The notes beneath the pieces are model-generated. The model was not told the DNA's origin. It saw only the letters and a program-made list of their open reading frames with translations, and made no database searches. Both the position numbers and the translations under genes were made by a program. A stretch of DNA of 64,000 nucleotides from Burkholderiales bacterium (GTDB lineage: Bacteria; Pseudomonadota; Gammaproteobacteria; Burkholderiales; Burkholderiaceae_E), in the NCBI GenBank assembly GCA_017307915.1, contig JAFKGG010000364.1:9980-73979 (forward strand), in the 5' to 3' direction. Below, piece by piece: positions 8,801-38,449 of the stretch (its first letter is position 1; each line of letters begins with the position of its first letter).

Positions 8801-10033
8801 CTATTTGGTCTGCGCCATCGTCGCCCGCAGATCCTGCCGCTCGAGCAGCCATGACACGGCCAGGCCGGCCAGCAGTCCCCAGAACGGCGCGCCGATGTCC
8901 AGGATCGTCTTGTCCGACACGGTCACCAGAAAGGTGATCAGCGCACCCAGCGTGAAGCGCCCGGCAAACGCCGTCACGAACGAAGTCTGCAGCACGCGCA
9001 GCATGGCCAGACCGGCCAGCGCCGCGATGAAGGCGGGCGGCGTGGCCAGCATCAGCCGCGTGAACAAGGGCGACAGCAGGCCGAAGGCCAGTGCCAGCAG
9101 CCCCACCACCAGGCCTCCGGTGTAATGCTGCTCGCGCGGCCCCGACGACGCCAGGATCGCGTTGGTCGGGCCGGTCAGGCAGGTCGACACGGTACCGACC
9201 ATCGCGGTCAGCATCGAGCCCAGGCCACAGGCGATGGTCACCGCGTTGACCGGCGCATCGTGACCAGCCGCCTTCAACACCGCCACCCCCTGACCGTTCT
9301 GCACCACCAGCACGGTGATCGCCAAGGGCACGACCAGCTCCAGCATCGCCGGCCACGACCACTGCGGCGATTGCAGCTCGGGCCGCGCCAGCACTGCGGT
9401 GGTCGCCATGTCGGGCGCGAAGCGCCCGACCAGCACGATCGCCAGAATCCCAACCAGCATGGCGCCGATCATCGGCGGCACGCGCCGCCCCAGACTCGGC
9501 AAGGCGCTGAGCACGATGAACACCAGCACCATCGGCACGGCGACGCCAGGGTCTTTATGCAGCGAATCGATCAGATCGGTGCCGAAGCGCAAAAAAACGC
9601 CGGCCACCATGCCCATCACGATCGGCATCGGCACCACCTGCATCGCGCGCCGCACCCATCCCGAGAAGCCCAGCAACAGCATCAACGCGCCGGTGGCAAT
9701 GAAAGCGCCGACCACTTCGCTGAACGACAGATGCCCCAGCGCCGGGCCGACCAGCACGGCGCCCGGAATCGTCCAGAAAAATGCCAGCGGCTGCCGGTAG
9801 CGCCAGCAGAACAGCAGCGTGATCAAGCCGTTCAGGAAGAACGAACCGAAGATCCACGATGCGAGCTGCGACTCCGACAACCCGCCCTGCGCACCCACCG
9901 ACAGGATCACTGCCACCGGCCCGGTGGCAGCGAAGACGAAGCCGATCAGGCCATTGACGGCGACGGTCGGGTTGAGGTCGGCGAACGCACCGGACAGCGT
10001 GGTAGGTGGGCGAGCGGCAGGTTCCAGGGGCAT
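8801..10033 (-). CDS. BenE-family benzoate/H+ symporter-like membrane protein
   Basis: AWTxPG-like FFWTIPGA, QNGQGVAVL, CLTGPTNAI and APFWGLLAG motifs; about 12 TM segments. Confidence 0.88.
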   Translation of the reverse strand: MPLEPAARPPTTLSGAFADLNPTVAVNGLIGFVFAATGPVAVILSVGAQGGLSESQLASWIFGSFFLNGLITLLFCWRYRQPLAFFWTIPGAVLVGPALGHLSFSEVVGAFIATGALMLLLGFSGWVRRAMQVVPMPIVMGMVAGVFLRFGTDLIDSLHKDPGVAVPMVLVFIVLSALPSLGRRVPPMIGAMLVGILAIVLVGRFAPDMATTAVLARPELQSPQWSWPAMLELVVPLAITVLVVQNGQGVAVLKAAGHDAPVNAVTIACGLGSMLTAMVGTVSTCLTGPTNAILASSGPREQHYTGGLVVGLLALAFGLLSPLFTRLMLATPPAFIAALAGLAMLRVLQTSFVTAFAGRFTLGALITFLVTVSDKTILDIGAPFWGLLAGLAVSWLLERQDLRATMAQTK

Positions 10034-10121
10034 GGCGGCGGTGACGATCGAGGCAGCGATGATTGAAGGAATGACTACACGGCCGACACGATACCGTGGA
10101 TGCCGCGCACGCGCGATGGCC

Positions 10122-10170
10122 CCGCCTTAGCGCCGCCTTAGCGCCGCCTTAGCGCCGCCTTGGCGCCGCC
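10122..10170. repeat. Intergenic tandem repeat, 11-bp unit, about 4.5 copies
   Basis: CCGCCTTAGCG x3, CCGCCTTGGCG, CCGCC. Confidence 0.95.
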
Positions 10171-10202
10171 GGTGGGGCCGTCGTCCGTTCGGGCCGGCGC
10201 GT

Positions 10203-11957: not shown

Positions 11958-12161
11958 GGGCTTGCTCCTCGTTTCGGTCCCGTTTGCGCCGGACCTGTCT
12001 CTTGTCATTGGCCACTGCTTGTCGATCAGCACGAATGATAGGCCGACTTCGGCGCACGATCATGCCGACGCGGCAAGATTGACGCGCAAATAGTTCAGAA
12101 CCTGCGGCTGGAGGGCAAAGTTCGCCACGCGGCGGCGAGCCCGCCGCTCAGGCGATCAGGC

Positions 12162-12506
12162 TCAATGACTGATCTGCCAGGGGCGGCGCCCGGTGAACGG
12201 GCGGCTGCCGTCGGCCAACCGCAGCGTGTTCTTACTGCCCTTGCCCGGCACACAGCAACTGCAGCCGCCGCCGTGCCGGCTTGCCCGGTAATCGGCCAGG
12301 CTGCGCGGCTCTGCCGCGCTGCGCTCGTTGATCGCATGCGCCTGCCGGCTTTGCGCCGACAGGCCAGCCAGCATCGGCATCGCAAAGATCTCGCGCGCCG
12401 AGGCCGTGCCGCAACTCGGGCAGGCGCAGAGCGCGTTGCGCTCGGCCAGCGGCCGGATCGCTGAAAAGCCGCCGCAGGCGGCGCATCGATAATCGTAGGT
12501 GGGCAT
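12162..12506 (-). CDS. fmdB: FmdB-family zinc-ribbon protein
   Basis: MPTYDYRCAACG...CPSCG, C-terminal RPWQISH; directly after fmdA. Confidence 0.9.
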   Translation of the reverse strand: MPTYDYRCAACGGFSAIRPLAERNALCACPSCGTASAREIFAMPMLAGLSAQSRQAHAINERSAAEPRSLADYRASRHGGGCSCCVPGKGSKNTLRLADGSRPFTGRRPWQISH

Positions 12507-12530
12507 GGCGGCGGCTTTCGGTGATGGGTA

Positions 12531-13763
12531 TCAGAGCAGATCAGGCGACATCGGTATGTCGACGCCCGGCTCGATGAACTTGACCGGCCCCGCGGAACTG
12601 GGGCGGATGTCGAAATCGAAGATCTGGGTCGGCAGCCACAGCGTCGCGCAGGCATTGGGAATGTCGACGACGCCGCTGATGTGGCCTTGCACCGGCGCGG
12701 TGCCCAGAATCGCGTACGCCTGCGCCCGCGTGTAGCCGAACTTGGTCAGATATTCGATCGCGTTCAGGCATGCCTGCCGATAGGCGACGTGTACGTCGAG
12801 ATAGTGCTGTTTGCCGTACTCGTCGACCGATATGCCTTCAAAGATCAGATAGTCGTTGTACTGCGGCGTGATCGGGCTCGGCTTGAATATCGGGTTCTTG
12901 ATGCCGTACTTGGCCATGCCGCCCTTGATCAGGTCCACCTTCATGTGTACCCAGCCGGCCATCTCGATGGCGCCGCAGAAGGTGATCTCGCCGTCGCCCT
13001 GCGAGAAGTGCAAATCGCCGACCGACAAACCGGCGCCGTCAACGTACACCGGAAAATAGATCTTCGAGCCACGCGACAGATCCTTGATGTCGCAATTGCC
13101 GCCGTGCTCACGCGGCGGCACCGTGCGCGCGCCGGAGGCGGCAGCTTGCGCCCTGGCCTCGCCCTTGAGCTTGCCCATGTGCGCGGTGCCCGCAAACGGC
13201 GGATTGGCCAGCGGCGGCACGCGCTCAGGCGCGGTGGCGATGAAGTCCACTTCGCGCTTGTTCCAGGTCTCCAGAAGCTTCGCATCCGGCAGGCAGCCGA
13301 TCAGCCCCGGATGGATCAGGCCGGCGAACTGCACGCCCGGCACGTGGCGCGAACTCGTGTACAAGCCGTGGAAATCCCAGATCGATTTCTGCGCCAGCGG
13401 AAAATGCTCGGTCAGGAAACCGCCGCCGTTCTTCTTCGAGAAAAAGCCGTTGAAGCCCCACAGGCTGTCGGGCTTGGCGCCGACGTCGAGCAGGTCGACC
13501 ACCAGCAGGTCGCCCGGCTCGGCGCCGGTCACGCCGACCGGCCCCGACAGGAAATGCACGGTGCTGAGGTCGACGTCGCGCACGTCATCGGCGCAGTCGT
13601 CGTTCTTGATATAGCCGCCGGTCCAGTCGTAGGTTTCCAGCACGAAATCGTCGCCCGGCCTGACCCAGCAGGCCATTGGAATGTCCGGGTGCCAGCGGTT
13701 GTGAATCAGCTCGTTGTCATAGGGGGATTGCTTCAGGTCGACCTTGATCAGCGTTTCAGGCAT
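12531..13763 (-). CDS. fmdA: Formamidase (acetamidase/formamidase family)
   Basis: HNRWHPDIP, PREHGGNCDIK, GDLHFSQGDGEITFCGAIE, VDIPNAC. Confidence 0.96.
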   Translation of the reverse strand: MPETLIKVDLKQSPYDNELIHNRWHPDIPMACWVRPGDDFVLETYDWTGGYIKNDDCADDVRDVDLSTVHFLSGPVGVTGAEPGDLLVVDLLDVGAKPDSLWGFNGFFSKKNGGGFLTEHFPLAQKSIWDFHGLYTSSRHVPGVQFAGLIHPGLIGCLPDAKLLETWNKREVDFIATAPERVPPLANPPFAGTAHMGKLKGEARAQAAASGARTVPPREHGGNCDIKDLSRGSKIYFPVYVDGAGLSVGDLHFSQGDGEITFCGAIEMAGWVHMKVDLIKGGMAKYGIKNPIFKPSPITPQYNDYLIFEGISVDEYGKQHYLDVHVAYRQACLNAIEYLTKFGYTRAQAYAILGTAPVQGHISGVVDIPNACATLWLPTQIFDFDIRPSSAGPVKFIEPGVDIPMSPDLL

Positions 13764-25689: not shown

Positions 25690-26994
25690 ATGAAAGCGAT
25701 CGTTCTGGGTGCCGGCGTCATCGGCGTCACATCGGCCTATTTTCTGAACCGGCTCGGCTTCGCCGTCACCGTCGTCGACCGTCAGCTCGAACCCGCCGCC
25801 GAAACCAGTTTCGCCAACGGCGGGCAGATCTCGGTCAGCCATGCCGAGCCCTGGGCCAACCCGGCAGCGCCGCTGAAGCTGCTGAAGTGGCTGACCCGCG
25901 CCGATGCGCCGCTGCTGTTCCGGCCGCGCGCCGACCTGCGGCAATGGCTGTGGTGCCTGGCGTTTCTGCGCGAGTGCACGCCGGCGCGCACGCGCGCCAA
26001 CATCGAACGCATCGTGCGGCTCGGCCTGTACAGCCGCGCCACGCTGCAGGCGCTGCGCCACGCTACCGGCATCCATTACGACGAACGCACGCGCGGCATC
26101 CTGCATTTCTATACCGATCCGGCCGAGTTCGCCGCCGCCGCCGGTCCGGCGCGGCTGATGAGCGACTTCGGCTGCGAGCGCCGCATCGTGTCGGCCGACG
26201 AAGCCGTTGCGATCGAACCCGCGCTGCGCCACGTGCACGCGCAACTGGCCGGCGCCACCTACACCGCCGCCGACGAATCGGGCGACGCGCGCCGGTTCAC
26301 GCGCGAACTGGCCGCGCTGTGCCGCGCCAACGGCGTCGAATTCCTGATGGGTCACCACGTGACCGCACTGCGTGCCGAAGGCGGGCGCCTTGCCCACGTC
26401 GAAGCCACCGATGCCGAGGGCCGCTACGTGAAGCTGACGGCCGACCGCTACGTGCTCGCGCTGGGCAGCTACAGCGCCTTGCTGGCCGCGCCGCTCGGCC
26501 TGCGATTGAAGGTCTATCCAGCCAAGGGCTATTCGGTGACGATGCCGGTGGCCGATGCGTCGCTCGCCTACGACGTTTCGCTCACCGACGACGGCTCGAA
26601 GCTGGTGTTCTCGCGGCTGGGCGATCGCCTGCGCATCGCCGGCACCGCCGAGCTGGCCGGCTATGACCGCTCATTGAACATGATGCGCTGCGAAGCCATC
26701 GTGCGCCGCACGCAGCAGCTGTTCCCCGGCGCCGGCGATACCTCGAAGGTGGAATACTGGAGCGGGCTGCGCCCGACCACGCCGTCGAACGTGCCCTACA
26801 TCGGCGCCACCCGCTATGCCAATCTGTTCCTGAACACCGGCCACGGCACGCTGGGCTGGACGCATGCCTGCGGCTCGGGGCGCGCATTGGCCGATCTGAT
26901 GGCCGGACGCGAGCCGGAAGTGGATGTGCTGCGGCGGGCCGACGGTTCGATCGGCGCCGGGCCAAGCCAGATTCAGCGGCGCGCCAGCACCTGA
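25690..26994 (+). CDS. dadA: D-amino acid dehydrogenase (DadA-like)
   Basis: GAGVIG FAD motif, ETSFANGGQIS, PAKGYSVT, GLRPTTP, NTGHGTLGWT. Confidence 0.92.
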   Translation: MKAIVLGAGVIGVTSAYFLNRLGFAVTVVDRQLEPAAETSFANGGQISVSHAEPWANPAAPLKLLKWLTRADAPLLFRPRADLRQWLWCLAFLRECTPARTRANIERIVRLGLYSRATLQALRHATGIHYDERTRGILHFYTDPAEFAAAAGPARLMSDFGCERRIVSADEAVAIEPALRHVHAQLAGATYTAADESGDARRFTRELAALCRANGVEFLMGHHVTALRAEGGRLAHVEATDAEGRYVKLTADRYVLALGSYSALLAAPLGLRLKVYPAKGYSVTMPVADASLAYDVSLTDDGSKLVFSRLGDRLRIAGTAELAGYDRSLNMMRCEAIVRRTQQLFPGAGDTSKVEYWSGLRPTTPSNVPYIGATRYANLFLNTGHGTLGWTHACGSGRALADLMAGREPEVDVLRRADGSIGAGPSQIQRRAST

Positions 26995-27544
26995 GCCCAC
27001 GCCCTAGGGCCCGTTCGCCCAGCGATGCCCATTGTCCGTCGCAATACAGCAGTGGCCGCTGCGCCGAGGAACTGGCCAGCGCACGAACGTCGCCGATCAG
27101 CAAGACATGCGTGCCGGCATCGATGGCCTGGTGCAGCGTGCAATCGAAAGTTGCCGCGGCATCGACCAGGGCGGGCGCGCCCGTCTGCAGCGCGGCCCAC
27201 TGGGCGTGCGCAAAACGGGCCTCGCCCTTGCAGGCGCCGGCGAACCGCGAGGCAATCGCCAACTGCTCATAACGCAATACGTTGACCGCGAAACTGCGCG
27301 CCTTTGCGATCAATGGATAGGCACTGGCCGTCTTGTTGACCGCCACCGCCAGCCGGGGCGGATCGGCCGACAGCGACATCACCGCCGTAGCGGTCAAGCC
27401 GCCCCTGACGCCGTCGGATTGCGCGGTGATCACGCAGACTGCGGCGGCCAAGCGCCGCATGCCGAAGCGAAAACCTTCCGGCGAAAGGTATTGTGCGGCT
27501 TCCTTCGCGGGGTCTCGATCTTCCATCATCGTCATGCCTGCCAT
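26582..27544 (-). CDS. Flavin reductase (HpaC/NtaB-like). Domain ends near 27010; frame lacks a normal stop and runs about 410 bp antisense into dadA
   Basis: FRFGMRRLAAAVCVIT, GLTATAVMSLSADPP, FAVNVL, GTHVLLIG, PLLYCDGQW. Confidence 0.85.
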   Translation of the reverse strand: MAGMTMMEDRDPAKEAAQYLSPEGFRFGMRRLAAAVCVITAQSDGVRGGLTATAVMSLSADPPRLAVAVNKTASAYPLIAKARSFAVNVLRYEQLAIASRFAGACKGEARFAHAQWAALQTGAPALVDAAATFDCTLHQAIDAGTHVLLIGDVRALASSSAQRPLLYCDGQWASLGERALGRGLRCWRAAESGLARRRSNRRPAAAHPLPARVRPSDRPMRAPSRRHASSPACRGRCSGTDWHSGWRRCRARSTAWSGAARSSIPPSRYRRRRGTAAACGARWLRSASCSMSGHSRPARRCRRCAGDRPAARTPASSRRR

Positions 27545-27553
27545 TGCCGATGA

Positions 27554-28864
27554 TCAACTCAGCAAGTTGCCGCGCAGCGTGCTGGCTTCATAGGCGGTTC
27601 GGAACACACCGCGCTTTTGCAGCAGCGGCACCACGTGGTCGACGAAATTCTCGACGCTGTCGGGATTGGTGGTGGGGCTCAGATTGAAACCCAGGCAGCC
27701 GGTTTCCCGCCAGATGCGCTCGATCTCGTCGGCAACCCGTTCGGGCGTGCCGATGATCTGCGGAATCGCCGGCGACAGCGCCCACTTCCTGGCCACTTCG
27801 CGCAAGGTGGCCGGCTCGCCCCGCTCATTGGTCATGGCCGCAGCCATCAGACCGCGCGAACCCTGCGATTCGGCACTGTCGGACAAGGGTTTGTCGGGGT
27901 CATACTGGCTCAGATCGATGCCGAACACGCCCGACATGCGCGCCAGGTTCGCTTCGAGCGGAATGCGCTCGATCAACTGCTGCGCCCGCGCCTTGGCCTC
28001 GGCGTCGGTGCTGCCGACGATGGGCTGCAATCCGAAAATGACCGGCGGCACCGCAACGCCGCAGCGCTGCGCCTCGGCCTTGAACTGCGCCATCACCTTC
28101 TTCATGCCGGCCACGTGGTTCTGGATCGAGAAGATGACTTCAGCATGCTTCATCGCGAACTGGATGCCGCGCCCCGACGAGCCGGCCTGGAACAGCACCG
28201 GACGGCCATGCGGCGAGGACAGCGTGGGGCCCACACCCTTGCACCTGAAATACTTGCCTTCGAAATCGACGAGCTTGATTCGTTCGGGGTCTGCAAACCG
28301 GCCCGATTGCCGGTCCCGCAACACCGCATCGGCCGGCACGCCATCCCATAGCTGGTAGCAGATCTCCATGAACTCGTCGGCCATGTCATAGCGCTCGTCA
28401 TGTTCGATCTGGCGGCCCAGGCCGCAGGCCAGGTGCTCGGCGCGGCTGAAGCCGGAAACGATGTTCCAGCCCACCCGGCCCTTGCTCAGATAGTTCAGCG
28501 TCGAGATGCGACGGCTGGCCAGATAGGGCGACGTGCCATTGGTCGACAGCGTCACGCACAGGCCAAGATGCCGCGTGGCCGCACTCATCACCGCCACCAG
28601 CGGCATCGGATCATGATTGGGCCAGATCACGCCCCATTGCACCGACGGCTTCACGCTGTTCATGTAGACGCCATGGGTCGCCGGGCTGTCGGCAAAGAAC
28701 ACGCCGTCGAAGCAGCCGCGCTCCAGCGTGCGGGCCATGTCCTGCCAATAAGCGTAGTCTTCGAGCCCGTCGAGCTGGCGGTCGGCCGGATCGGCCCAGG
28801 ACATCAAGGTGTGCGTGATGCCGGTGTGAAGCAGCATCTGGAACAGATGGATTTGCGACGACAT
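27554..28864 (-). CDS. NtaA/DszA/SnaA-family FMNH2-dependent monooxygenase
   Basis: FDGVFFADS, GRVGWNIVSG, HDERY..ADEF, LFQAGSSGRG, VVPLLQKRG. Confidence 0.92.
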   Translation of the reverse strand: MSSQIHLFQMLLHTGITHTLMSWADPADRQLDGLEDYAYWQDMARTLERGCFDGVFFADSPATHGVYMNSVKPSVQWGVIWPNHDPMPLVAVMSAATRHLGLCVTLSTNGTSPYLASRRISTLNYLSKGRVGWNIVSGFSRAEHLACGLGRQIEHDERYDMADEFMEICYQLWDGVPADAVLRDRQSGRFADPERIKLVDFEGKYFRCKGVGPTLSSPHGRPVLFQAGSSGRGIQFAMKHAEVIFSIQNHVAGMKKVMAQFKAEAQRCGVAVPPVIFGLQPIVGSTDAEAKARAQQLIERIPLEANLARMSGVFGIDLSQYDPDKPLSDSAESQGSRGLMAAAMTNERGEPATLREVARKWALSPAIPQIIGTPERVADEIERIWRETGCLGFNLSPTTNPDSVENFVDHVVPLLQKRGVFRTAYEASTLRGNLLS

Positions 28865-28909: not shown

Positions 28910-29863
28910 CTATTGCGGTTGAATGCCTGCGTTGCGGGCCGCTTCGGTCCACAAGTTCAATTGCGCCGCGACGAAATCCGGAAAACTGACGCTGCCCAGA
29001 TTGATCGGATCCAGGCCCAGCAGCTTGAACTTCTCCAGCGTGTCCGGGTCGTTTCTCGCCTTGCGCAGCCGCTCGCGAAGCCAGGTCACCGCCTCGGACG
29101 GCATGTCTTTGGGGCCGCAGACGCCGGCCCAGGCCATCACGTCGATGGCCGGCTTGCCCAGCTCGACCAGCGAAGGCACGTCCGGCAGGCTGATCGAACG
29201 CCTGGGCGCGATCACGGCCAACGCCTTGACCTTGCCGGTTCTGACCATCGGCGCGGTCACGCCGGTGTCGGTCACGCCGAACGACACGCGGTTCTGGGAA
29301 AGATCGTTCAGGCCTTCCTGCGTGGCCTTGTAGGGCACCGGCAGGGCCTTCAGGCCGATGGCCCGGGTCAGCGAAGCCGCCAGCACCTGCGCGGTCGCGT
29401 TCGAATACATGTAGCTGAGCTTGTCCGGATTGGCCGCCGAATGCCTGATCAGCTCGTCGAGCGACGTGAAGCCCAGCTCGGGCGCCGATGACACGACGTA
29501 GGTATAGGAGGCCAGCGGCTCGATGAAAGTGAAATCGCTGGTCGTGTCGTACGGCAAGGATTTCATCAGCGACGTGGCCGCCGAGTTGATCGATGCGCTG
29601 CAGATGCCGATCGTGTAGCCGTCGGCCGGGCTCTTGACCAGCGTGGTGGTGCCGATCACGCCCACCGCGCCCGGAATGTTCCGGATCACGAAGCGGGCCG
29701 AGTGCTCTCTATGGACCACATCGGTGATCACCCGGACGAGCTGGTCGGCACCCGATCCGGGTGCGTATTGAACGATGAAGCTGATCGGCCGCGACGGAAA
29801 TTCCTGGGCCGTCGCGCTCAAGGCCGCGCAACCCAGAAGCAGGGATGAAATCAAGTGGCGCAT
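28910..29863 (-). CDS. Bug/TctC tripartite tricarboxylate transporter substrate-binding protein
   Basis: Signal peptide, FPSRPISFIVQYAPGSGAD, PADGYT, PYKA. Confidence 0.9.
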   Translation of the reverse strand: MRHLISSLLLGCAALSATAQEFPSRPISFIVQYAPGSGADQLVRVITDVVHREHSARFVIRNIPGAVGVIGTTTLVKSPADGYTIGICSASINSAATSLMKSLPYDTTSDFTFIEPLASYTYVVSSAPELGFTSLDELIRHSAANPDKLSYMYSNATAQVLAASLTRAIGLKALPVPYKATQEGLNDLSQNRVSFGVTDTGVTAPMVRTGKVKALAVIAPRRSISLPDVPSLVELGKPAIDVMAWAGVCGPKDMPSEAVTWLRERLRKARNDPDTLEKFKLLGLDPINLGSVSFPDFVAAQLNLWTEAARNAGIQPQ

Positions 29864-29893: not shown

Positions 29894-30403
29894 TCACCGG
29901 ATCAGCGATCTCACCCAGTCCTCGCCGATGCCGTTTTCCTTGCAGTGCTTCATGTAGCGATCGAGCCGCAGATAGACGTCGTCGTAGCTCGTCACGTTGC
30001 CCTGCGGATCGAGGTGAATCACGGGCCCGTAGACGTGGAACAGCGCCGTCATGTGCCCGACCTCGGGATCGATGAACAAGGTGTGGATGTGCCCCGCAGG
30101 CTCGTAGACGAAGCTGCCGGGCTTGGCGAGCCAGTCATGCTCGCGATAGCCCCAGGAACCGTCGATGGTCCATGCCGTCACCGCGGCGGCATGCCGGTGC
30201 CGCTGGATGGTTCCCTTGCCCTCGGCCTTCAGCAGGCTGACCCAGCCGCCGTTGGTGACGTCGAACAATACCGGCCGCACCATGCCGCGCAGCGGGTGCT
30301 CGTTGCCGACGTTGGGCAGCGGATACCACTTGCCGTCCATCGTCATCACGTCGGGCAGAAACATCTCGGGCCGCGTGAAAGCAGAGTTCTGAATGTTGAT
30401 CAT
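29894..30403 (-). CDS. Cupin, 2,4'-dihydroxyacetophenone dioxygenase (DAD)-like family
   Basis: RHRH...GSWGYREHDW...YEPAGHIHTL cupin His/Glu metal motifs. Confidence 0.82.
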   Translation of the reverse strand: MINIQNSAFTRPEMFLPDVMTMDGKWYPLPNVGNEHPLRGMVRPVLFDVTNGGWVSLLKAEGKGTIQRHRHAAAVTAWTIDGSWGYREHDWLAKPGSFVYEPAGHIHTLFIDPEVGHMTALFHVYGPVIHLDPQGNVTSYDDVYLRLDRYMKHCKENGIGEDWVRSLIR

Positions 30404-30428: not shown

Positions 30429-31616
30429 TCAAACGAGGCGCTTCGCTCGCCATTCGTCGATTTGCGCTTCGGTGAAGCCCGCCTTCAGCAGGCGTTGCTG
30501 CGTGTCGCGGCCCAGTACGGGCGCGGCGCGATGCACCGTCGGCGGGTCGGAACTGAACCGGATCGGCGCCCGCACCTCGCGCAGGCTGCCGAGCTTGTCG
30601 TGCTGCGTCTCGATGACCAGGCCCGGAATGCGCGCGCTGAAGAAATCCAATGAATCCTTGATGCTCAGCACCGGCGCCGCGATCACCTCATGCCGCGAGA
30701 GAATCGCCAGCCATTCGTCGCGCGGCTTGCTGCCGAAGATCGGCCGCAGCACCTCGGCCAGCGCGGCGCGGTGCTTGACGCGATCCCAGTTCTCCTTGAA
30801 GCGCGCGTCTTCGATCAGATCTAGACGTTCGATGGCAGTGCACAGCTGCCGCCACGATGCCCGGTGAAAGGCGCCGACGACCAGGTACAGGCCATCAGAA
30901 GCCTCGAACGCCTGATAGGGCGCCAGCTGCGGGTGGCCGCTGCCTTGCCGCGTGAAACGCGGGTTGCCGTTCAGCACGCTGACCAGATAGTTCGGCATCA
31001 GCGCGTAGGACGCCTCCAGCAGCGAGACCTGCACGTGCTCGCCGACGCCGGTCTGCTCGCGCTTGAACAGAGCGGCGAGAATGCCGATCGTCGACAGCAT
31101 GGCCGCCGAGGCATCGACCACCGGCGTGCCCGCCTTCGAAGGGCCGCTGTCAGGCTCGCCGGTCACGTCCATCATGCCGGAATAGGCCTGGCCGATGATG
31201 TCGTTGCCGCCGTCTTCCTCCATGCCCTGCGCGCCGCCGAACGCGGTCACCGAGCAATAGACGATGCGCGGATTGATCTTGCTGATCTGCGCATAGTCCA
31301 GTCCCCATTCGGCCATTCGATGCGAGCGGAAATTCTCGATCAGCACGTCGCAGTCGGCGGCCAGCTCACGCACGATGCGCTGGCCGACCTCGGTGCGGAT
31401 GTCGGCCGTGACGCTTTCCTTGCCGCGGTTGATGCCGAGGAAATAGCCGCTTTCGCCCTTGCCCACGTAATCGTCGGTGAAGCGGATCAGATCGCCGCGG
31501 CCCGGCTTTTCGATCTTGATCACCTGCGCGCCCATCTCGCCCAGCAGCATCGCGCTGAACGGCGCGGCCAGCGCAGAGCCCAGATCCAGAATCTTCAAAC
31601 CCGATAGATGTGACAT
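30429..31616 (-). CDS. Class III CoA-transferase
   Basis: AAPFSAMLLGEMGAQVIKIE, NRGKES, ENFR, GTPVVD. Confidence 0.92.
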   Translation of the reverse strand: MSHLSGLKILDLGSALAAPFSAMLLGEMGAQVIKIEKPGRGDLIRFTDDYVGKGESGYFLGINRGKESVTADIRTEVGQRIVRELAADCDVLIENFRSHRMAEWGLDYAQISKINPRIVYCSVTAFGGAQGMEEDGGNDIIGQAYSGMMDVTGEPDSGPSKAGTPVVDASAAMLSTIGILAALFKREQTGVGEHVQVSLLEASYALMPNYLVSVLNGNPRFTRQGSGHPQLAPYQAFEASDGLYLVVGAFHRASWRQLCTAIERLDLIEDARFKENWDRVKHRAALAEVLRPIFGSKPRDEWLAILSRHEVIAAPVLSIKDSLDFFSARIPGLVIETQHDKLGSLREVRAPIRFSSDPPTVHRAAPVLGRDTQQRLLKAGFTEAQIDEWRAKRLV

Positions 31617-31656: not shown

Positions 31657-32517
31657 TCACGAAGAGAAATGGGCCTTGGCCCGTTGCAGGGCTTCGGCCA
31701 TTCCGTGATCGCGGGCCTGTTTGAGAAAGTTGAACTCTCCATCGCGAAAGTGCAGGTTGCTGGCCCAGGCCCCGACCGCGTTGGCCGTGGCAAAGCCCAT
31801 GCCGATCTGCATCTTTTCCAGCGAAGCGAAGACGACGTGCTTTTCGGCGACGATGGCGTCGCGCATCACCTGCGCGCAAACGCCGGCGGTCTGCGCGACG
31901 CGGGCCGACAGCTCGCCGGCGGGCACCACCTCGTCGACCAGGCCGTAGTCGCTGGCCTGCCGCGCGTTCCACGACAGCCCGAACAGCATCAGCTCCTTGG
32001 CGCGCTTGAGCCCGACCGCGGCCACCAGCAGCGAGATGTCGCCGTCGACCCCGAGATGGCGCCAGCGCGCGTTGTCGAAACGGGCGGTGTCGGCGGCCAG
32101 CACCAGGTCGCAGCACAGCGCCAGATACAGGCCGACTTCCGAACACGCACCCTGCGCCGCCAGCACGGTCACCTTGGGACAGCGCAGCAAGCGCATGTAC
32201 AGCCCGTCGGGGCCCCACCACAACTCGGACAACGCGAGCAGCCGCGCACGCTGGCTAGGCACCTTGCGGGCACGCCCACCCGGTGCGTCGCGAAAGAGGG
32301 TTTCCAGCTCGGCGGGATCGAAGCCGCAGGTCAGATCCTCGCCGGCCCCCTCGATGACGATCACCTTGATGTCATCGTCCATCGAGAACGCCTTGATCGC
32401 CTGCGCCATGGCACGCGCGATCTCGATCGAGATCAGGTTGCCCGAGCCGGCGCGATCGATCGTGATGCGGCCCAGATGCTGGTCGGATTCGCGGCGAATC
32501 CGCAGGTGGCGGGTCAT
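31657..32517 (-). CDS. Crotonase-fold protein, paralog 3 (degenerate)
   Basis: DDDIKVIVIEGAG, PKVTVLAAQGAC, CDLVLAAD, GLKRAKELM, YGLVDEVVP; no canonical Glu pair. Confidence 0.85.
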   Translation of the reverse strand: MTRHLRIRRESDQHLGRITIDRAGSGNLISIEIARAMAQAIKAFSMDDDIKVIVIEGAGEDLTCGFDPAELETLFRDAPGGRARKVPSQRARLLALSELWWGPDGLYMRLLRCPKVTVLAAQGACSEVGLYLALCCDLVLAADTARFDNARWRHLGVDGDISLLVAAVGLKRAKELMLFGLSWNARQASDYGLVDEVVPAGELSARVAQTAGVCAQVMRDAIVAEKHVVFASLEKMQIGMGFATANAVGAWASNLHFRDGEFNFLKQARDHGMAEALQRAKAHFSS

Positions 32518-33221
32518 GATGCGCCCCCGCCGGTCATCACCTGCGCGAACAGGCCGGCCGCATCGAAATCGGTGCCTGCACCCTGCGCATCGAGCAGGGC
32601 TTCGATCTGGATCTTCGACATCGCGATGCCGTCCAGCGGCGTTCTGGCAGCAGCGTGCGCCATCTGCAGGGCAAGCGCGTCGACTGCAGCCACATCCTCG
32701 ATACGGTTGACCAGGCCGCGCTCGCAAGCCTGCCGGGCGCTCCATGGCTGGCCCGCGAGCATCCATGACTTTGCCCGGTTCAGGCGGACAGTCAGCGCGG
32801 CCAATACCAGATTGGCTTCGGGCAGCCGCTCGAACGGGGAACCGAACTCGCTGTCGGCCGCGCACACCGTATGGTCGGAGCACAGCACCAGCATGCTTCC
32901 CGCGTCGTGGCATCGGCCGCGCACCGCGGTGACGACGATCTTCTTGCAGAAAGCCAGGCTCTGATACAGCCCGTTGCAAGCGGCATAGGCAGCGTGCCAC
33001 GCCGCGCCGAACGGCGGCGAGACACAGGCATCGGCGCCGAGCGGCGGCGCGAAGTCGTTTCCCGTCGAGCGCAGCACCAGCGCCTTCACCTCGTCGCTGT
33101 CGGCCAGCTCGACCACGGCATCGCGCAGGGCCGCGGCGAACGCCACGTCATGCCGGCTCAATGCGCCGTAGTCGGTTGCACTGAGCACCGCCACCGGCCC
33201 GTCGCGCTTGACGTCGATCAT
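32514..33221 (-). CDS. Crotonase-fold protein, paralog 2 (strongly degenerate, short)
   Basis: DEVKALVLRSTG, KKIVVTAVRG.C, SDHTVCA, RGLVNRI; FAPPLG replaces the FCAGAD oxyanion motif. Confidence 0.8.
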   Translation of the reverse strand: MIDVKRDGPVAVLSATDYGALSRHDVAFAAALRDAVVELADSDEVKALVLRSTGNDFAPPLGADACVSPPFGAAWHAAYAACNGLYQSLAFCKKIVVTAVRGRCHDAGSMLVLCSDHTVCAADSEFGSPFERLPEANLVLAALTVRLNRAKSWMLAGQPWSARQACERGLVNRIEDVAAVDALALQMAHAAARTPLDGIAMSKIQIEALLDAQGAGTDFDAAGLFAQVMTGGGAS

Positions 33222-34141
33222 GGCGCTGCCTCCGGGCCGGCAGCGGCCTTCGCGGCTATCGCAGCGGCCAGCCTCGCCTTGTCGGCATCCAATGCCCCCC
33301 TGACGCCGGATTGCTTCACCTGCGTCCAGAAGTGCGCCTCATCGTCGGCCGATTGCAGGAAGTGCGAGAACAGCAACCCGCAGATTTCGCGCACGTTCGT
33401 GCCGAAGACCGATTCCGCCAGGCCGGCACGCGTTTTCAGGTAGGCCAGCCGCTGCGCCGGACCATCGGCCAGCCGGCGCGCCAGCGCCTGCACGCCGGCG
33501 GCCAGTTGATCGTCGGGCAGACACTCATGGGCCAGGCCGAGCTTGCAGGCCTCGGGCCCGGTCATCGGCAGGCCGCTGTAGCCGAAGCGGCGGGCGGCCT
33601 TGGTACCCACGATGCGGTTGATGTGCACCGCCGACACGGCGCCGGCCGGACCCAGGAAGCGGGCTTCGAGCGCGCCGATCCTGGCGCTTTCGGAAACCAT
33701 CACCAGATCGCAGCGCGTGCCGATCATGAAGTACGCCGCAGCCGCGCAGTAGCCGTGCAGTTGCAGCAGCGTGACCTTGGTGCTGCGCGTCAACGCCTGG
33801 CTGAAGCCCTGCCGGCCGTAGTTGAGATCGCCGGCGTAGCGATTTGCCATCGACAGCGACATGCGCTTCTGTCCTGGCCTGCGCTGCCCCCAGTCTTCGT
33901 TGATCTCGTTGCCGCTACAGAAGGATTTGCCGTTGCCGGCGATCACGATCACGCGCAGCTCGTCGTCGGCATCGCACTGCCTGAGCAATTCCATCAGACG
34001 CAGCCGCATCGGCACCGTCATCGCGTTGTGCTTCTCGGGCCGGTTCAGCGTGATCCGCGCGATCCGGCCGTCGTCCGAACGTTCGAACAGCACCTGCCCG
34101 GTCGCCCGGGCGATGCTTTCCGGATTGCCGTAGACGTTCAT
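33218..34141 (-). CDS. Crotonase-fold protein, paralog 1
   Basis: ITLNRPEKHNAM, FCSGNE, GALE (one Glu retained), LGLAHE. Confidence 0.88.
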   Translation of the reverse strand: MNVYGNPESIARATGQVLFERSDDGRIARITLNRPEKHNAMTVPMRLRLMELLRQCDADDELRVIVIAGNGKSFCSGNEINEDWGQRRPGQKRMSLSMANRYAGDLNYGRQGFSQALTRSTKVTLLQLHGYCAAAAYFMIGTRCDLVMVSESARIGALEARFLGPAGAVSAVHINRIVGTKAARRFGYSGLPMTGPEACKLGLAHECLPDDQLAAGVQALARRLADGPAQRLAYLKTRAGLAESVFGTNVREICGLLFSHFLQSADDEAHFWTQVKQSGVRGALDADKARLAAAIAAKAAAGPEAAP

Positions 34142-35295
34142 CGAGCGGCTTCCGCCAAAGGCCGCGAGATGATCGTGTCGCCGTCGAGTTCGAACTGCGT
34201 CGCGATCTTCTGCGACGCGGTGATCTTCTTCATGTAGGCCAGCACCTCGAAGAACTCGGGCTCGTCGGTCCTGAGCAGCCGCGGCTGCGATTTCCGGTTG
34301 ATCATCGTCGGCTGCCAGCGCACGCGGGCCAGCTTGCGGTCGCTCACGTCGAGGTGAACGACCAGGCCCTTGCGCGAATCGACCGGGAACGGAAAGGTGG
34401 GATAGTCAGGATCGTGCGTCCAGCCCGGATGCAGCCGCTGCCGGCGTTCGATGCGCTCGGGCTTGTCCAGTTCGCCGGGCTGGTAATACATATCGAACGC
34501 AAAGTTGGCCATGCCGTAGAAGATCGGCCGGCCCTTGTAGATCTCGATCGGCTTCAGGATGTGCTGATGGTGGCCGAGAATGACGTCGGCACCCGCGTCG
34601 ATCGCGGCCTTTGCGTACTTCAGCTCGTAGGTGGCCAGCTCGCCTTCCCGGAAATGCAGGCCCCAGTGCATCGACACGATCACCACGTCGACCTGTTCGC
34701 GCAAGCTGCGGATGTCGGCCAGGATGTTGGCCAGGTCCTCGTCGTGCGGATAGGTCAGGATGCGCGGCGGCGTGCCCGGCTGGTCGGGTTCGAGCGTTTC
34801 GTAGATGGTGCGCGCCCGCGCCGGCGCACAGCCCGGACGATCGACGTCGGCCCAGTAACGGATCGGCAGGATCGAGCAATAGCCCAGCCAGCCGACGCGA
34901 TTGCCGTTGTGCTCGATGATCACCGGCTTGCGCGCCTCGGCCAGGTTGTCGCCGGCACCGAACAGGTGGATGCGATTGGCGCGAAAGTGCGCGATCGTGT
35001 CCTTGAACGCCGAGATGCCGTAATCCATGCAGTGATTGCTGGCAAACGACGCGATGTTGAAACCCGCCCGGCCGATGGCAGCAACGTTTTCCGGATCGCC
35101 GCGCAGCGGCGAAGAAGTGCCGCTGACGTTGACTTCGCCGAGTGTCGAATAGATGGCTTCGATCTGGCCGAAGGCGAGATCTGCCTGCTTCATCTGCGCA
35201 GACACCAGCTCGAAGATCGAGTCGGGCTCGTCCCGGTTGACCGCGATGTCGCCGACGGCAAAGATCCGCGTCGTGGAATTGGGGCGGGTGCTCAT
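34138..35295 (-). CDS. CapA/YwtB-family metallophosphoesterase-fold protein
   Basis: VGDI, DLAFGQIE, ASNHCMDYG, SMHWG, GHHQH, PIFYGMANF. Confidence 0.88.
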   Translation of the reverse strand: MSTRPNSTTRIFAVGDIAVNRDEPDSIFELVSAQMKQADLAFGQIEAIYSTLGEVNVSGTSSPLRGDPENVAAIGRAGFNIASFASNHCMDYGISAFKDTIAHFRANRIHLFGAGDNLAEARKPVIIEHNGNRVGWLGYCSILPIRYWADVDRPGCAPARARTIYETLEPDQPGTPPRILTYPHDEDLANILADIRSLREQVDVVIVSMHWGLHFREGELATYELKYAKAAIDAGADVILGHHQHILKPIEIYKGRPIFYGMANFAFDMYYQPGELDKPERIERRQRLHPGWTHDPDYPTFPFPVDSRKGLVVHLDVSDRKLARVRWQPTMINRKSQPRLLRTDEPEFFEVLAYMKKITASQKIATQFELDGDTIISRPLAEAAR

Positions 35296-35305
35296 GCTCA
35301 GGAAA

Positions 35306-36292
35306 TCACTCGGGTTGGATGTTCGCTTGCTTGACGACGCTGGCCCAGCGCCGGACTTCGGACTGCAGATAGGGATCGAATTCATCCGGACCGGCAGCAA
35401 CGACCCGCATGCCCTCGGCCGCCATGCGCTCGGTCACTTCGGGTTGCGCCAGCACTGCCGCAATGTCCTTCGCAAGCCGGTCGACGATAGGCTTGGGCGT
35501 TCCTGCACGCGTGATGATTCCGTACCAGGTCACCAGCTCGAATCCCTTCAGACCTGATTCGGCGACGGTCGGCAGCTCGGGCCACAACGGCGAACGATTG
35601 GCGCTGGTGATCGCGATCGCCTTGACGCGGCCGGACTTGGCATGCGGCAGGCCCGACAGCAGCGTGGTGAACATGAAATCGACGTCGCCGCGCATCACCG
35701 CCATCAGGGTCGGCGACCCGCCGGCATATGGAACGTGTACGGCGTCGATACCCGCCATCATGTTGAACATCACGCCGCCCAGATGGCCCGGCCCGCCCAG
35801 CCCCGGAGCGCCGAAGTTCAGGCTGCGGGTCTTGCCCAGCGCGATCAGGTCCCGCACGCTGTCAACCTTCAGGTTCGGATTCACGACCAGCAGATTGGGC
35901 GCCTCGACCATGTTGATCACGCCCGCGAAATCCTGCGGGAAGCGATAGGGCAAGGCCTTGCGCACGCTCGGATGCACGGCGTGCGAAGTGATGATGATCG
36001 CGAACGTGTAGCCGTCGGCAGGCGCCATCGTCAGCGCCTGGATGCCGATCGTGGCGTCGGCGCCGGGCTTGTTCTCGACCACCACCGGCTGTTTCCATTG
36101 CTCGGTCAGGCCCTTGCTCAACAGCCGCGCCAGCGAATCCGCGCCGCCGCCCGGCGTCCAGGAAACGATGAACCGGACGGCGTGGCCCGGAAACTCGGCC
36201 GCCCGGCCCAGACGCGGCATGGCGGCCAGCAGCGGCGCGCTCAGCGCGAGCTTGTTGAGGTGTCTGCGCGAGACCGGCATGGCTTTCCTCAT
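35306..36292 (-). CDS. Bug/TctC substrate-binding protein
   Basis: Tat-like SRRHL leader, PGGGAD, VENKPGA, PADGYT, HVPYAGG. Confidence 0.92.
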   Translation of the reverse strand: MRKAMPVSRRHLNKLALSAPLLAAMPRLGRAAEFPGHAVRFIVSWTPGGGADSLARLLSKGLTEQWKQPVVVENKPGADATIGIQALTMAPADGYTFAIIITSHAVHPSVRKALPYRFPQDFAGVINMVEAPNLLVVNPNLKVDSVRDLIALGKTRSLNFGAPGLGGPGHLGGVMFNMMAGIDAVHVPYAGGSPTLMAVMRGDVDFMFTTLLSGLPHAKSGRVKAIAITSANRSPLWPELPTVAESGLKGFELVTWYGIITRAGTPKPIVDRLAKDIAAVLAQPEVTERMAAEGMRVVAAGPDEFDPYLQSEVRRWASVVKQANIQPE

Positions 36293-37479
36293 CCTTCCTG
36301 GCTGACCGGGCCGGCGCGGTGCGGCGCTATCGCCGCGCTCGCCAATCCGCCCAGAATTTCTTGCGTGTGTTCTCCCAGCATCGGCACCTGCCGCCGCGGC
36401 GCGGTGTCCATGCCCGGCATGCGGAACGGTGCGTGCGGCACCAGGTACTCGCCGGCGCCGTCCTGCACCACGGCCATGGTTCCGCGCTGCCGGATCTGCG
36501 GGCTGCCGATGGCTTCGGCAGCGCTCAGATAGCGCGTGCAGGGCACGCCCTCATGCATCAGGCGCGCTTCGCAATCGGCGCCGCTGCGCTCGCGCGTCCA
36601 CTGCTCGATCAGGCTCATCAACTCGGACCAATGCTTCTCGCGCGAAACGGTGTCGACGAATCGCGGGTCTTGCAGCCACTGCGGGCGATCGATCACGCGC
36701 ACCAGCGCCTCGAAGTTCTTCTGGCTGGTCGGGGCGATCACGATGAAGCCGTCGGCGCATTGCAGCGGCGGATAGACGCGGTGCGCGGCCGATGACGGCG
36801 CCTGCGCCTCCTGGCATTCGGCGACCAGGATGTTCAGCATGCCGTCGAGCAGCGCGACGTCGATGTACTGGCCCTCGCCGCTGCGCTGCCGATGCAGCAG
36901 CGCCGCCTGGATCGCAGCGAAGGCCGACATGCCGCCGAACACGTCGGCGGTGTAGGTCGCCGTGTTCTGCGGCTTGCCGCCGCCTTGATATTGCATCTGG
37001 GCAAGATCGAAGCCGCTGGCGGCATGGATGATCGGCGCATACGCGGGCCGCCGCGCGTCGGGCCCATGCTGGCCGAACCCGGAAATCGAGCAATAGACGA
37101 TGTCGGGCTTGATGCGACGCACGGCCTCGTAGCCGATGCCGAGCCGATCAGCGACACCGGGCCGCCAGTTCTCCACCACCACGTCGCTGGTGGCGGCCAG
37201 CGCCAGCGCGGCCTCGATGCCTGCGCTCGACTTCAAGTCGAGCACGATGCTCTTCTTGCCGCAATTGAGATGGCCGAAGAAGCTGCTGTACCCATCGCGT
37301 ACCGGCCTGCGCCCGCGATTGTGGTCGCCGTGTTTGGGTTCGACCTTGATGACTTCGGCGCCGAGATCCGCCAGCAAGCGGGTGCAGTAAGGGCCCGACA
37401 GCATGTTGGTCAGATCAAGGACGCGCATACCCGCGAGCGGGCCCGCCGTTCCTGGCCGGGGCGCAGAAGCGGAACTCAT
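36289..37479 (-). CDS. Class III CoA-transferase
   Basis: LSGPYCTRLLADLGAEVIKVE, NCGKKS, ENWRPG, ATYTAD. Confidence 0.92.
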   Translation of the reverse strand: MSSASAPRPGTAGPLAGMRVLDLTNMLSGPYCTRLLADLGAEVIKVEPKHGDHNRGRRPVRDGYSSFFGHLNCGKKSIVLDLKSSAGIEAALALAATSDVVVENWRPGVADRLGIGYEAVRRIKPDIVYCSISGFGQHGPDARRPAYAPIIHAASGFDLAQMQYQGGGKPQNTATYTADVFGGMSAFAAIQAALLHRQRSGEGQYIDVALLDGMLNILVAECQEAQAPSSAAHRVYPPLQCADGFIVIAPTSQKNFEALVRVIDRPQWLQDPRFVDTVSREKHWSELMSLIEQWTRERSGADCEARLMHEGVPCTRYLSAAEAIGSPQIRQRGTMAVVQDGAGEYLVPHAPFRMPGMDTAPRRQVPMLGEHTQEILGGLASAAIAPHRAGPVSQEG

Positions 37480-37567
37480 CGAATCTCCTCTTGAATTCGA
37501 TGCGACTATGCGCCGCGTATTAATCTACGTAAACTTAAATTATTGGAACAACTATGCTGGTTTGCTA

Positions 37568-38449
37568 ATGAATCTCGGAGGCCGTGAAATCGATGCATTC
37601 CTGGCGCTCGCCGAAACCAAGCGCTTCGCGATCGCCGCGAAACGCTGCCATGTATCGGCCTCGGCTTTCAGCCAGATCATCAGCCGGCTGGAAGAGCAGG
37701 TCGGCGCGCGCCTGTTCGATCGCAACACCCGGCACGTATCGTTGACGCCCGAAGGCGAAGCCTTTTCGCACGGCGCCTATCGCATCGCGACCGAGCTGCG
37801 CGCCACGATCAACGAACTGCGCGAACGCGCTTCATGGCGAACCGGCCGCGTCACCGTGGCGGCAACGCCGTCGCTGGCCACCGACTGGGTGCCGCGGCGC
37901 CTGGCGATCTATCGCAAATCGTTTCCCAGCATCGCTCTTCGGCTGCACGACGTGACGTCGGAGCGCTGCCTCGTCATGATCGACCGCGGCGAAGTCGACT
38001 TCGGCTTCAATGCCCAGCGGGGCACCGATCTGGAATTCGAAAGCCACTTGCTGTTCATGGAACGCTATTACGTTCTATGCCGCAAGACAGACCCGCTGGC
38101 CAGGTTGAAAGAGATCCGGCTGAAAGACCTGAAAGACCGCGAGATCGTGAAGCTGCCGCTCACCGGCAGCGTCTATCCGCAGATGCTGCCGCTGCTGTCG
38201 TCGGCCCAGGTCAGGGACAGCGGCATGGAAGTGGCCAACTTCGGCACGCTCGCGGGACTGGTGGCGGCCGGCTTCGGCCTGGGCATCGTGCCCGAGCATG
38301 CGCTCGAATTGTGCCGGCGGCCCGGCATCGTCGGCGTTCCGATCAATGCCAATCGGGCGACGCGGCCGGTCTACATGATTCGCCGCCGCGGCCGCAGCCT
38401 TTCTGCGGCGGCGCAGGCGATGTGGGAACAGATCGCGAAAGACTTCTGA
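37568..38449 (+). CDS. LysR-family transcriptional regulator, divergent from the 27-37.5 kb operon
   Basis: FLALAETKRFAIAAKRCHVSASAFSQIISRLE...LFDRNTR.V.LT; AT-rich intergenic spacer. Confidence 0.92.
   Translation: MNLGGREIDAFLALAETKRFAIAAKRCHVSASAFSQIISRLEEQVGARLFDRNTRHVSLTPEGEAFSHGAYRIATELRATINELRERASWRTGRVTVAATPSLATDWVPRRLAIYRKSFPSIALRLHDVTSERCLVMIDRGEVDFGFNAQRGTDLEFESHLLFMERYYVLCRKTDPLARLKEIRLKDLKDREIVKLPLTGSVYPQMLPLLSSAQVRDSGMEVANFGTLAGLVAAGFGLGIVPEHALELCRRPGIVGVPINANRATRPVYMIRRRGRSLSAAAQAMWEQIAKDF

Follow-up and report, generated by a model that had tools for sequence, protein, structure and literature searches.

A 64,000-nucleotide stretch of DNA from a Burkholderiales bacterium (GenBank assembly GCA_017307915.1, contig JAFKGG010000364.1, positions 9,980 to 73,979 of the forward strand; hereafter the window) carries a gene for a CapA-type protein embedded in a catabolic operon. 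It is firmly established that this protein belongs to a distinct, widespread, and multi-phylum clade of soluble proteins of about 375 amino acids, and that it does not belong to a poly-glutamate system. The conserved company of the clade consists of carboxylate import and catabolic enzymes. The best explanation of the whole, offered tentatively and by analogy with the characterised enzyme MslH, is that the protein may be a metal-dependent epimerase or racemase (or an enolate-type isomerase) of the CapA/MslH fold, which would act on an imported acid before its loading onto coenzyme A (CoA). The gene in question is the following.

34138 to 35295, minus strand: soluble CapA-type (PGA_cap) metal enzyme of 385 amino acids, identified by PF09587, an AlphaFold model, and a fold match to MslH

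The translation of 35295 to 34138 comprises 385 amino acids and begins with MSTRPNSTTRIFAVGD. A longer, TTG-started open reading frame (ORF) reaching 35400 was rejected, as it overlaps the adjoining Bug gene and is contradicted by the N-termini of homologs, all of which start about 8–12 residues ahead of the GD motif. The protein matches the Pfam family PGA_cap (PF09587) over residues 11–268 and profile positions 2–254 of 255. With an E-value of 1.4e-62 and 211.9 bits against a cut-off of 27, this match is not due to chance. Every motif listed in an initial annotation of the window is present, namely G15-D16, D39-x3-G43-Q44-x-E46, N87-H88 followed by D91, H210-W-G212, and G241-H-H-Q-H245, and together they make up the CapA variant of the metallophosphoesterase set. 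In this variant, motif I is without the DxH histidine (GDIAV) and motif II reads QxE rather than GD. Compared with the canonical motifs of metallophosphoesterases (DxH, GDxxDR, GNH[DE], H, GHxH), the window protein retains SNHCMD, H210, and GHHQH, whereas DxH and GD are altered. Neither a signal peptide nor a membrane segment was found in the protein, again as first annotated: its maximum Kyte-Doolittle hydropathy over 19 residues is 0.89, and its first catalytic motif, the GD at residues 15–16, lies already at residue 15. CapA of Bacillus anthracis pXO2, by contrast, has a clear anchor, with a value of 2.57 at residues 25–43. The solubility of the protein is firmly established, and it is considered cytoplasmic.

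Relatives of the window protein are numerous. A homolog search returned more than 2000 clusters at E <= 1e-10, with identities graded between 85% and about 40% and with lengths that in nearly all cases are 370–400 amino acids. A pattern scan with one genome per species placed relatives in 383 species; the neighbourhood counts are based on 80 loci chosen from these. Fused forms of 675–2000 amino acids were absent at E <= 1e-40, which is weak evidence, and matches in the ESM Atlas were confined to "CapA family protein" clusters, none with a structure. Based on a quick search, two maximum-likelihood trees were computed, one of 114 family members and one of 67 members including two pgsBC-linked CapA proteins (B. 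anthracis pXO2 and B. thuringiensis). In both trees, the 375-residue clade with the window protein is recovered at 96–98 in the Shimodaira-Hasegawa-like approximate likelihood ratio test (SH-aLRT), and a second group at 99 unites three long paralogs from the same genome with Sinorhizobium and Leuconostoc plasmid proteins. Within the 375-residue clade, the proteins linked to crotonases group in a single subclade (support 100), the sisters of which are TctC/CoA-transferase-linked betaproteobacterial proteins. The pgsBC-linked CapA pair (support 100) is separated from the clade, as judged from only two such sequences on long branches.

This placement bears directly on the classical view of the family, namely a role as CapA/PgsA in poly-gamma-glutamate synthesis with partners encoded at a distance. 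CapA/PgsA of the CapBCA(DE)/PgsBCA systems (B. anthracis pXO2, B. thuringiensis, B. subtilis) belongs to the same family as the window protein, and the annotation label speaks for such a role. The identity in the catalytic domain amounts to 30–33%, with 30% to B. anthracis CapA over residues 4–268, and the active-site signature HWG and GHHxH stands in the same columns in the window protein and pXO2 CapA. However, CapA/PgsA carries an N-terminal membrane anchor and always comes after capB-capC, as both reference CapA genes do, whereas the window protein shows neither feature. The initial annotation had noted the missing capB and capC, and their absence extends well beyond the window: tblastn with pXO2 CapB and CapC found neither gene in the window or the 80 related loci, and no match to the profile hidden Markov models for CapC (PF14102) and PgsB (TIGR04012) was obtained in the whole 6.1-Mb, 94%-complete assembly. 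Moreover, the window protein sits in a separate clade, so that the clustering with capBC-linked proteins that the annotation had named as counting against its reading is not seen in the trees (two capBC-linked sequences only), and the gene is embedded in a catabolic operon. A classical poly-glutamate role for the window gene is effectively refuted and retains a negligible probability.

Structural comparison points to a different relative. By sequence, the only relatives in the Protein Data Bank are MslH entries (E 8.5e-16), and the sole NCBIfam match is the MslH model NF038314, at 85.7 bits versus a cut-off of 700. An AlphaFold2 run on a 62-sequence alignment yielded a model with a predicted local distance difference test (pLDDT) score of 94.4 and a predicted template modelling (pTM) score of 0.93. 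The top Foldseek match of this model is MslH (8GQ9/8ITG), with an E-value of 3.9e-28 and a template modelling (TM) score of 0.79–0.81 over both domains, and it leads the ranking by twenty orders of magnitude. The next matches are YmdB-type phosphoesterases and 5'-nucleotidases at TM 0.35–0.46.

MslH, which the initial annotation passed over, is the sole biochemically characterised and solved PGA_cap protein. It is the Ca-dependent epimerase of the C-terminal Trp of the Streptomyces lasso peptide MS-271 (PMC10406935, PMC8179263). MslH works with one metal (Ca): the C-terminal carboxylate of the substrate binds the metal, and the alpha-proton is taken up and given back by two His/Asp dyads, H88/D91 and H295/D11 (PMC10406935). 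The metal ligands are E44, N87, H259, and H261, and the enzyme needs D11, E44, N87, H88, D91, H259, and H295 (PMC10406935). The counterparts D16, E46, N87, H88, D91, H210, and H245 are invariant or nearly so among 108 members of the window clade. MslH thus resembles the window protein in Pfam family, solubility, fold over both domains (TM 0.8), and conservation of the catalytic counterparts. It differs in sequence, at about 21–22% identity and far below the NF038314 cut-off, and in setting: MslH acts on a peptide within a biosynthetic cluster, whereas the window gene sits in a catabolic acid operon.

The second tier of structural matches raises the possibility of a genuine phosphoesterase, which would dephosphorylate an intermediate or trim CoA or nucleotide by-products. 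The fold is calcineurin-like, and these weaker matches are indeed phosphodiesterases and nucleotidases. YmdB-type and other calcineurin-like metallophosphoesterases (4B2O, 1T71, 2CV9; 5'-nucleotidases) share with the window protein an alpha/beta sandwich core and equivalent metal-ligand positions (PMC10406935), but they leave the C-terminal domain unmatched and reach less than MslH in TM score. Additionally, the DxH and GDxxDR motifs are altered, and no recurrent kinase or phosphorylated-substrate enzyme was found in the 80 neighbourhoods. A phosphoesterase role is therefore considered very improbable.

Differences between family members are concentrated around the metal site. HWG (with H214) and GHHxH in the window clade are the same as in genuine CapA, so that the metal site is of the CapA type rather than the MslH type; HxH and GHGxH are found in MslH, the three long paralogs of the genome, and the Sinorhizobium and Leuconostoc proteins. 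Furthermore, the clade has a short, strongly conserved loop, E-x-D-Q-P-G-T-P-x-R (residues 169–178), where MslH has an insert of roughly 60 residues, and conserved Arg/Lys residues at R122, R160, R178, K248, and R308. Judged from these residues, the loop and the basic side chains may form a pocket that accommodates a small polyanionic ligand instead of a peptide.

The genes surrounding the CapA-type gene lie on one strand, in the order CoA-transferase, TctC, CapA-type gene, three crotonases, CoA-transferase, Cupin_7, TctC, monooxygenase, and flavin reductase, with a divergent regulator ahead of them:

37403 to 38449, plus strand: divergent LysR-type regulator (PF00126, PF03466), divergent in orthologs too
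36289 to 37479, minus strand: family III CoA-transferase A, first gene of the operon (PF02515, E 2.5e-108), below all NCBIfam equivalog cut-offs
35306 to 36292, minus strand: Bug/TctC periplasmic carboxylate-binding protein (PF03401, E 3.9e-58), adjoining CapA in orthologs too
33218 to 34141, minus strand: crotonase 1 (PF00378, E 3.5e-28)
32514 to 33221, minus strand: crotonase 2, short at 235 amino acids (PF00378, E 2.4e-14), order kept in orthologs
31657 to 32517, minus strand: crotonase 3 (PF00378), an open frame of 286 amino acids, order kept in orthologs
30429 to 31616, minus strand: family III CoA-transferase B (PF02515, E 7.5e-114)
29894 to 30403, minus strand: Cupin_7 protein of the variable accessory part (PF12973, E 4e-11), in only 2 orthologous loci
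28910 to 29863, minus strand: second Bug/TctC binding protein (PF03401, E 2.9e-43)
27554 to 28864, minus strand: NtaA/DmoA-family monooxygenase dependent on flavin mononucleotide, variable accessory part (TIGR03860, 436 bits versus a cut-off of 279.7)
26582 to 27544, minus strand: flavin reductase, with RutF/HpaC-like matches below cut-offs

The coupling described in the initial annotation was confirmed on both sides of the CapA-type gene. Its TGA stop (34140–34138) overlaps the ATG (34141–34139) of crotonase 1, giving an ATGA junction at 34141–34138, and the TctC/Bug gene directly before it ends 10 nucleotides ahead of its start codon. None of the CoA-transferases or crotonases of the operon reaches an NCBIfam equivalog cut-off. 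For CoA-transferase B, the nearest NCBIfam models are succinate-glutarate and succinyl-CoA:mesaconate CoA-transferases, at 246 bits and far below cut-offs. Orthologs of CoA-transferase A, 68–75% identical, occupy the equivalent position in orthologous loci. The longest ORF of the LysR-type regulator shares 77 nucleotides (37403–37479) with the 5' end of the divergent CoA-transferase gene, and its helix-turn-helix begins only at residue 62; the true start probably lies further downstream of 37403.

Conservation of this arrangement decreases stepwise with the identity of the CapA-type protein. Neighbourhoods were assembled by our own approximate ORF calling, BLAST clustering of flanking ORFs, and Pfam scans of cluster representatives. 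Greedy calling in loci of high guanine-plus-cytosine content let shadow ORFs mask some genes, including CapA in a few loci, and distance-based counts limit this error. Orthologs at 72–84% identity, from metagenome-assembled genomes (MAGs) of Ramlibacter, Burkholderiales, and Nitrosomonadales, keep the order CoA-transferase, TctC, CapA, and crotonases 1, 2, and 3. The three closest ones, from Ramlibacter, also share the stop/start overlap with crotonase 1 (ATGA/GTGA). The part with the cupin, the monooxygenase, and the second TctC gene is accessory, as only two of these orthologous loci have it; the monooxygenase occurs in L002 and L004 only. A minimal cassette is seen in a Comamonadaceae MAG (L003:4139-7583), where a LysR gene stands next to TctC, CapA (82% identical), and a family III CoA-transferase; crotonases are missing there and unrelated genes (VTT-domain, purH) come next. 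Sister proteins at 56–57% identity lie beside two CoA-transferases, two acyl-CoA dehydrogenases, and two TctC genes.

Members at 40–48% identity are spread over Chloroflexota, Bacillota, Thermodesulfobacteriota/Myxococcota, Actinomycetota, and Alpha- and Gammaproteobacteria, and they have other neighbourhoods. The recurrent neighbours of the clade are as follows.

44 of 80 loci: MmgE/PrpD protein, within 3 kb in 33 and adjacent in 25
20 of 80 loci: PFL2-type glycyl-radical enzyme, with an activase in 10
17–19 of 80 loci: Dpp-type ABC importer
16 of 80 loci: family III CoA-transferase
9 of 80 loci: tannase-family esterase, in Steroidobacter-type loci
8 of 80 loci: AMP-forming (adenosine monophosphate-forming) CoA ligase
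7 of 80 loci: Abhydrolase_10, in Steroidobacter-type loci
6 of 80 loci: 2-hydroxyacyl-CoA dehydratase subunits, with a BcrAD/BadFG-type ATPase (the family of their activators) in 3
Various loci among the 80: TRAP, TctC, CitMHS/MatC, MFS, and TonB transporters

Transporters are found in 54 of the 80 loci, CoA enzymes in 27, and a crotonase neighbour in 9. At least one importer or catabolic neighbour class is present in 74 loci, while capB or capC is present in none. TctC, TRAP, and CitMHS/MatC are the carboxylate types among the clade-linked transporters. Among solved structures, iminodisuccinate (IDS) epimerase comes closest to the PrpD-like partner (E 1.5e-40), followed by cis-aconitate decarboxylases. 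The PFL2/glycerol-dehydratase-type glycyl-radical enzyme (for instance at L032:11174-13576, and in L017, L020, and L035) is an orphan, since no NCBIfam equivalog cut-off is reached. The orphan glycyl-radical enzyme, its activase, the CapA-clade gene, and the PrpD-like genes are often joined by CitMHS/MatC or TRAP carriers. The Burkholderiales subclade of the window belongs to the same 375-residue clade as these PrpD-like, CapA-like, and orphan glycyl-radical-enzyme strings, but it has two family III CoA-transferases and three crotonases in place of the PrpD and glycyl-radical partners.

Annotated plasmids agree with this pattern. On plasmid pNL2 of Novosphingobium aromaticivorans DSM 12444 (L088, record 9375-12940), a CapA gene (42% identity) lies together with a gene for a 342-residue hypothetical protein without a Pfam match and with MmgE/PrpD. 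This group is divergent from a cluster of amidohydrolase, MhpA-like hydroxylase, VOC dioxygenase, and FAH genes (aromatic meta-cleavage). Cupriavidus necator pENH92 has TctC followed by CapA, with PrpD and more TctC genes nearby. Two Chloroflexota MAGs (L027 and L054) carry five to six CapA paralogs of the 375-residue clade per locus, a striking expansion in which they are interleaved with genes for SBP_bac_8 solute-binding proteins. Furthermore, a CapA domain has been listed as a syntrophy-associated signature of unassigned role (PMC13248872, PMC13082233).

Taken together with the fold, this context leads to a proposed route in which the LysR-controlled operon would take up an organic acid, probably a C4–C6 substituted di- or tricarboxylate, via Bug/TctC. 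The CapA-type enzyme would act on the free acid, family III CoA-transferases would put the product onto CoA, and the three crotonases would transform the CoA ester. By analogy with MslH, the substrate carboxylate would bind the active-site metal, and the conserved pairs His88/Asp91 and His245/Asp16 would take the proton from the carbon next to this carboxylate and give it back, thereby supplying the stereoisomer accepted by stereospecific downstream enzymes. Reaction type, step order, and substrate class are all inferred here, with the reaction type as the weakest point. Action on the free acid, early in the pathway, is held with moderate confidence because the constant neighbours are importers, PrpD is a free-acid partner in most phyla, and a cassette of TctC, CapA, and CoA-transferase exists. 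In the Burkholderiales form, the CoA-transferases and crotonases could perform a PrpD-comparable dehydration or isomerisation at the level of the CoA ester.

As to reaction type, an MslH-like alpha-proton chemistry (epimerase, racemase, or related isomerase) is the leading possibility, although it falls short of being probable. It is favoured because it is the only chemistry demonstrated for the fold variant, with the whole fold and both dyads kept, and because a step that inverts a stereocentre would help the enzymes that come after it, CoA-transferases and crotonases being as a rule stereoselective. The characterised 2-hydroxyacyl-CoA dehydratases are not known to accept any 2-hydroxy acids but the (R)-forms, and a racemase would therefore be useful beside them.

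Several points weigh against an epimerase. The reaction type is drawn from one distant relative, MslH, with 21–22% identity in the structural alignment and a low NF038314 score. The Ca ligand His261 of MslH aligns with Gly212 of the window protein, and the signature is HWG/GHHxH, not the HxH/GHGxH of the MslH type. Moreover, the ligands D16, Q44, E46, N87, H210, H214, H242, H243, and H245 are numerous enough for a two-metal hydrolytic centre. All the residues needed by MslH are also standard metallophosphoesterase residues, so their conservation cannot separate an epimerase from a hydrolase; it was rejected as a discriminator for this reason. Additionally, tannase and alpha/beta-hydrolase esterases flank the clade in Steroidobacter-type loci, which could mean that the pathway handles esters or lactones.

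Several of these points lend weight to the view of the initial annotation, which had read the protein as a cytoplasmic catabolic hydrolase (of a phosphoester, amide, or lactone) performing an early pathway step. In its non-phosphate form, a lactonase, esterase, or amidase would free the imported acid, and CoA activation would follow. The fold is a metallo-hydrolase fold, and two metals could be accommodated by the ligands of the CapA-type site (HWG..H214, GHHxH). Esterase genes of the tannase and alpha/beta-hydrolase types flank the clade in 7–9 loci and peptide/opine importers of the Dpp type in 17–19, and a hydroxy-tricarboxylate lactone passed on to a PrpD-type dehydratase would be a coherent route. 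However, a literature search found no PGA_cap protein shown to hydrolyse, and the one characterised family member, MslH, is an epimerase. Motif I lacks its canonical histidine (DxH) and motif II its GD, and a further hydrolase is not obviously needed in loci with dedicated esterases. The cytoplasmic and catabolic parts of the annotation stand, given the 74 of 80 loci and the conserved order, and the early step is reasonable; the hydrolase part gives way to the MslH epimerase, which matches the whole fold. Hydrolysis is hence no longer the default reading; it is less likely than not, but a serious rival.

The tight translational coupling to crotonase 1 suggests yet another option. The acid or its CoA ester might undergo some other reaction assisted by a carbanion or by the metal, such as decarboxylation, a retro-aldol cleavage, hydration, or beta-elimination; alternatively, the CapA-type protein might serve the crotonase trio as a non-catalytic partner subunit. 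A metal-stabilised enolate can lead to elimination rather than reprotonation, as in other enzyme superfamilies, and the PrpD-family partners include dehydratases and decarboxylases. However, such a reaction has no precedent in the family, and an obligate crotonase complex is unlikely because a crotonase neighbour is so rare among the 80 loci. This option is rated as distinctly unlikely, below hydrolysis.

For the proposed epimerase or racemase, hints on the substrate class point to substituted C4–C6 di- or tricarboxylates, possibly with an N or O substituent. Besides the similarities and importers given below for the narrower candidates, these hints include the carboxylate type of the transporters. 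Narrower candidates were set aside, as the evidence is too indirect. These were aminopolycarboxylates or opine-like acids, considered on account of the IDS-epimerase-like partner, the NtaA-type monooxygenase, and the Dpp-type importers, and malate, citramalate, or 2-hydroxyglutarate-type acids, considered on account of the CoA-transferase similarity and the 2-hydroxyacyl-CoA dehydratases.

The window gene is not the only PGA_cap gene of its genome. Three more, encoding proteins of 452–466 amino acids, each adjoin a TctC/Bug gene:

Contig C78, 18216 to 19181, plus strand: PGA_cap paralog (L085) with MslH-type HxH/GHGxH, unlike the window gene
Contig C316, 16048 to 17019, minus strand: PGA_cap paralog (L086), likewise
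Contig C278, 31519 to 32490, minus strand: PGA_cap paralog (L087), likewise

Their contexts are TctC, PGA_cap, and an acyl-CoA-dehydrogenase-like gene; TauD, PGA_cap, and TctC; and TctC and PGA_cap. Since every paralog adjoins TctC, the family in this organism is coupled to carboxylate uptake and not to capsule formation. About 5.6 kb upstream of the C78 paralog is a gene (L085:2146-3765, plus strand) for a gamma-glutamyltransferase with 25% identity to pXO2 CapD. At least 33 MmgE/PrpD paralogs are present in the genome, none near a PGA_cap gene. Elsewhere, an MslH-signature CapA gene directly follows a Dpp-type ABC importer on plasmid pC of S. meliloti (L092), and another directly follows a MetQ-type binding protein on the Leuconostoc plasmid pDRC1 (L091). 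These two cases extend the coupling of soluble CapA-family proteins with importers beyond the 375-residue clade.

The distribution of the window gene is patchy. Among 171 other genomes of the same family, 35 of them from the same genus, no ortholog of the window CapA was found, the best match having 42% identity, and the closest orthologs, at 82–84% identity, are in Ramlibacter MAGs. The operon is therefore accessory and probably horizontally acquired, or else the contig is mis-binned. The assembly has 6.1 Mb in 521 contigs, compared with 2.5–4.7 Mb in the same-genus genomes listed (21 of the 35).

The fold family was already known; what is new is the distinct architecture, context, and probable substrate class of the 375-residue clade. 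In the searchable literature, no paper was found that assigns a function to a catabolic CapA homolog. The database label "capsule biosynthesis protein CapA", with the Gene Ontology (GO) term for capsule polysaccharide biosynthesis, is attached to thousands of these proteins, wrongly so in this clade. An orphan glycyl-radical enzyme, IDS-epimerase-like PrpD proteins, and the triple-crotonase module all have the clade as a conserved partner, and several pathways would therefore be opened up together if the reaction and substrate of the clade were identified. Cultured carriers include N. aromaticivorans DSM 12444 (pNL2), which is genetically tractable, Steroidobacter species, Caballeronia megalochromosomata, and Paenibacillus fonticola. 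In its widest form, which we regard as possible but doubtful, the proposal is that the clade constitutes an unrecognised class of small-molecule racemases/epimerases (or enolate-type isomerases) on a metallophosphoesterase fold, acting on substituted di- or tricarboxylic acids. Such enzymes would provide the shared first step of PrpD-like/glycyl-radical routes in gut and sediment anaerobes, of 2-hydroxyacyl-CoA dehydratase routes, and of CoA-transferase/triple-crotonase routes. The reaction of the clade also bears on what CapA/PgsA does in poly-gamma-glutamate biology. The authors of the MslH work put forward CapA itself as the epimerase in the synthesis of poly-gamma-glutamate (PMC8179263). 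If the wide proposal is true, it would extend to genuine CapA/PgsA, which has the same HWG/GHHxH site and would then be the glutamate epimerase long sought in this synthesis.

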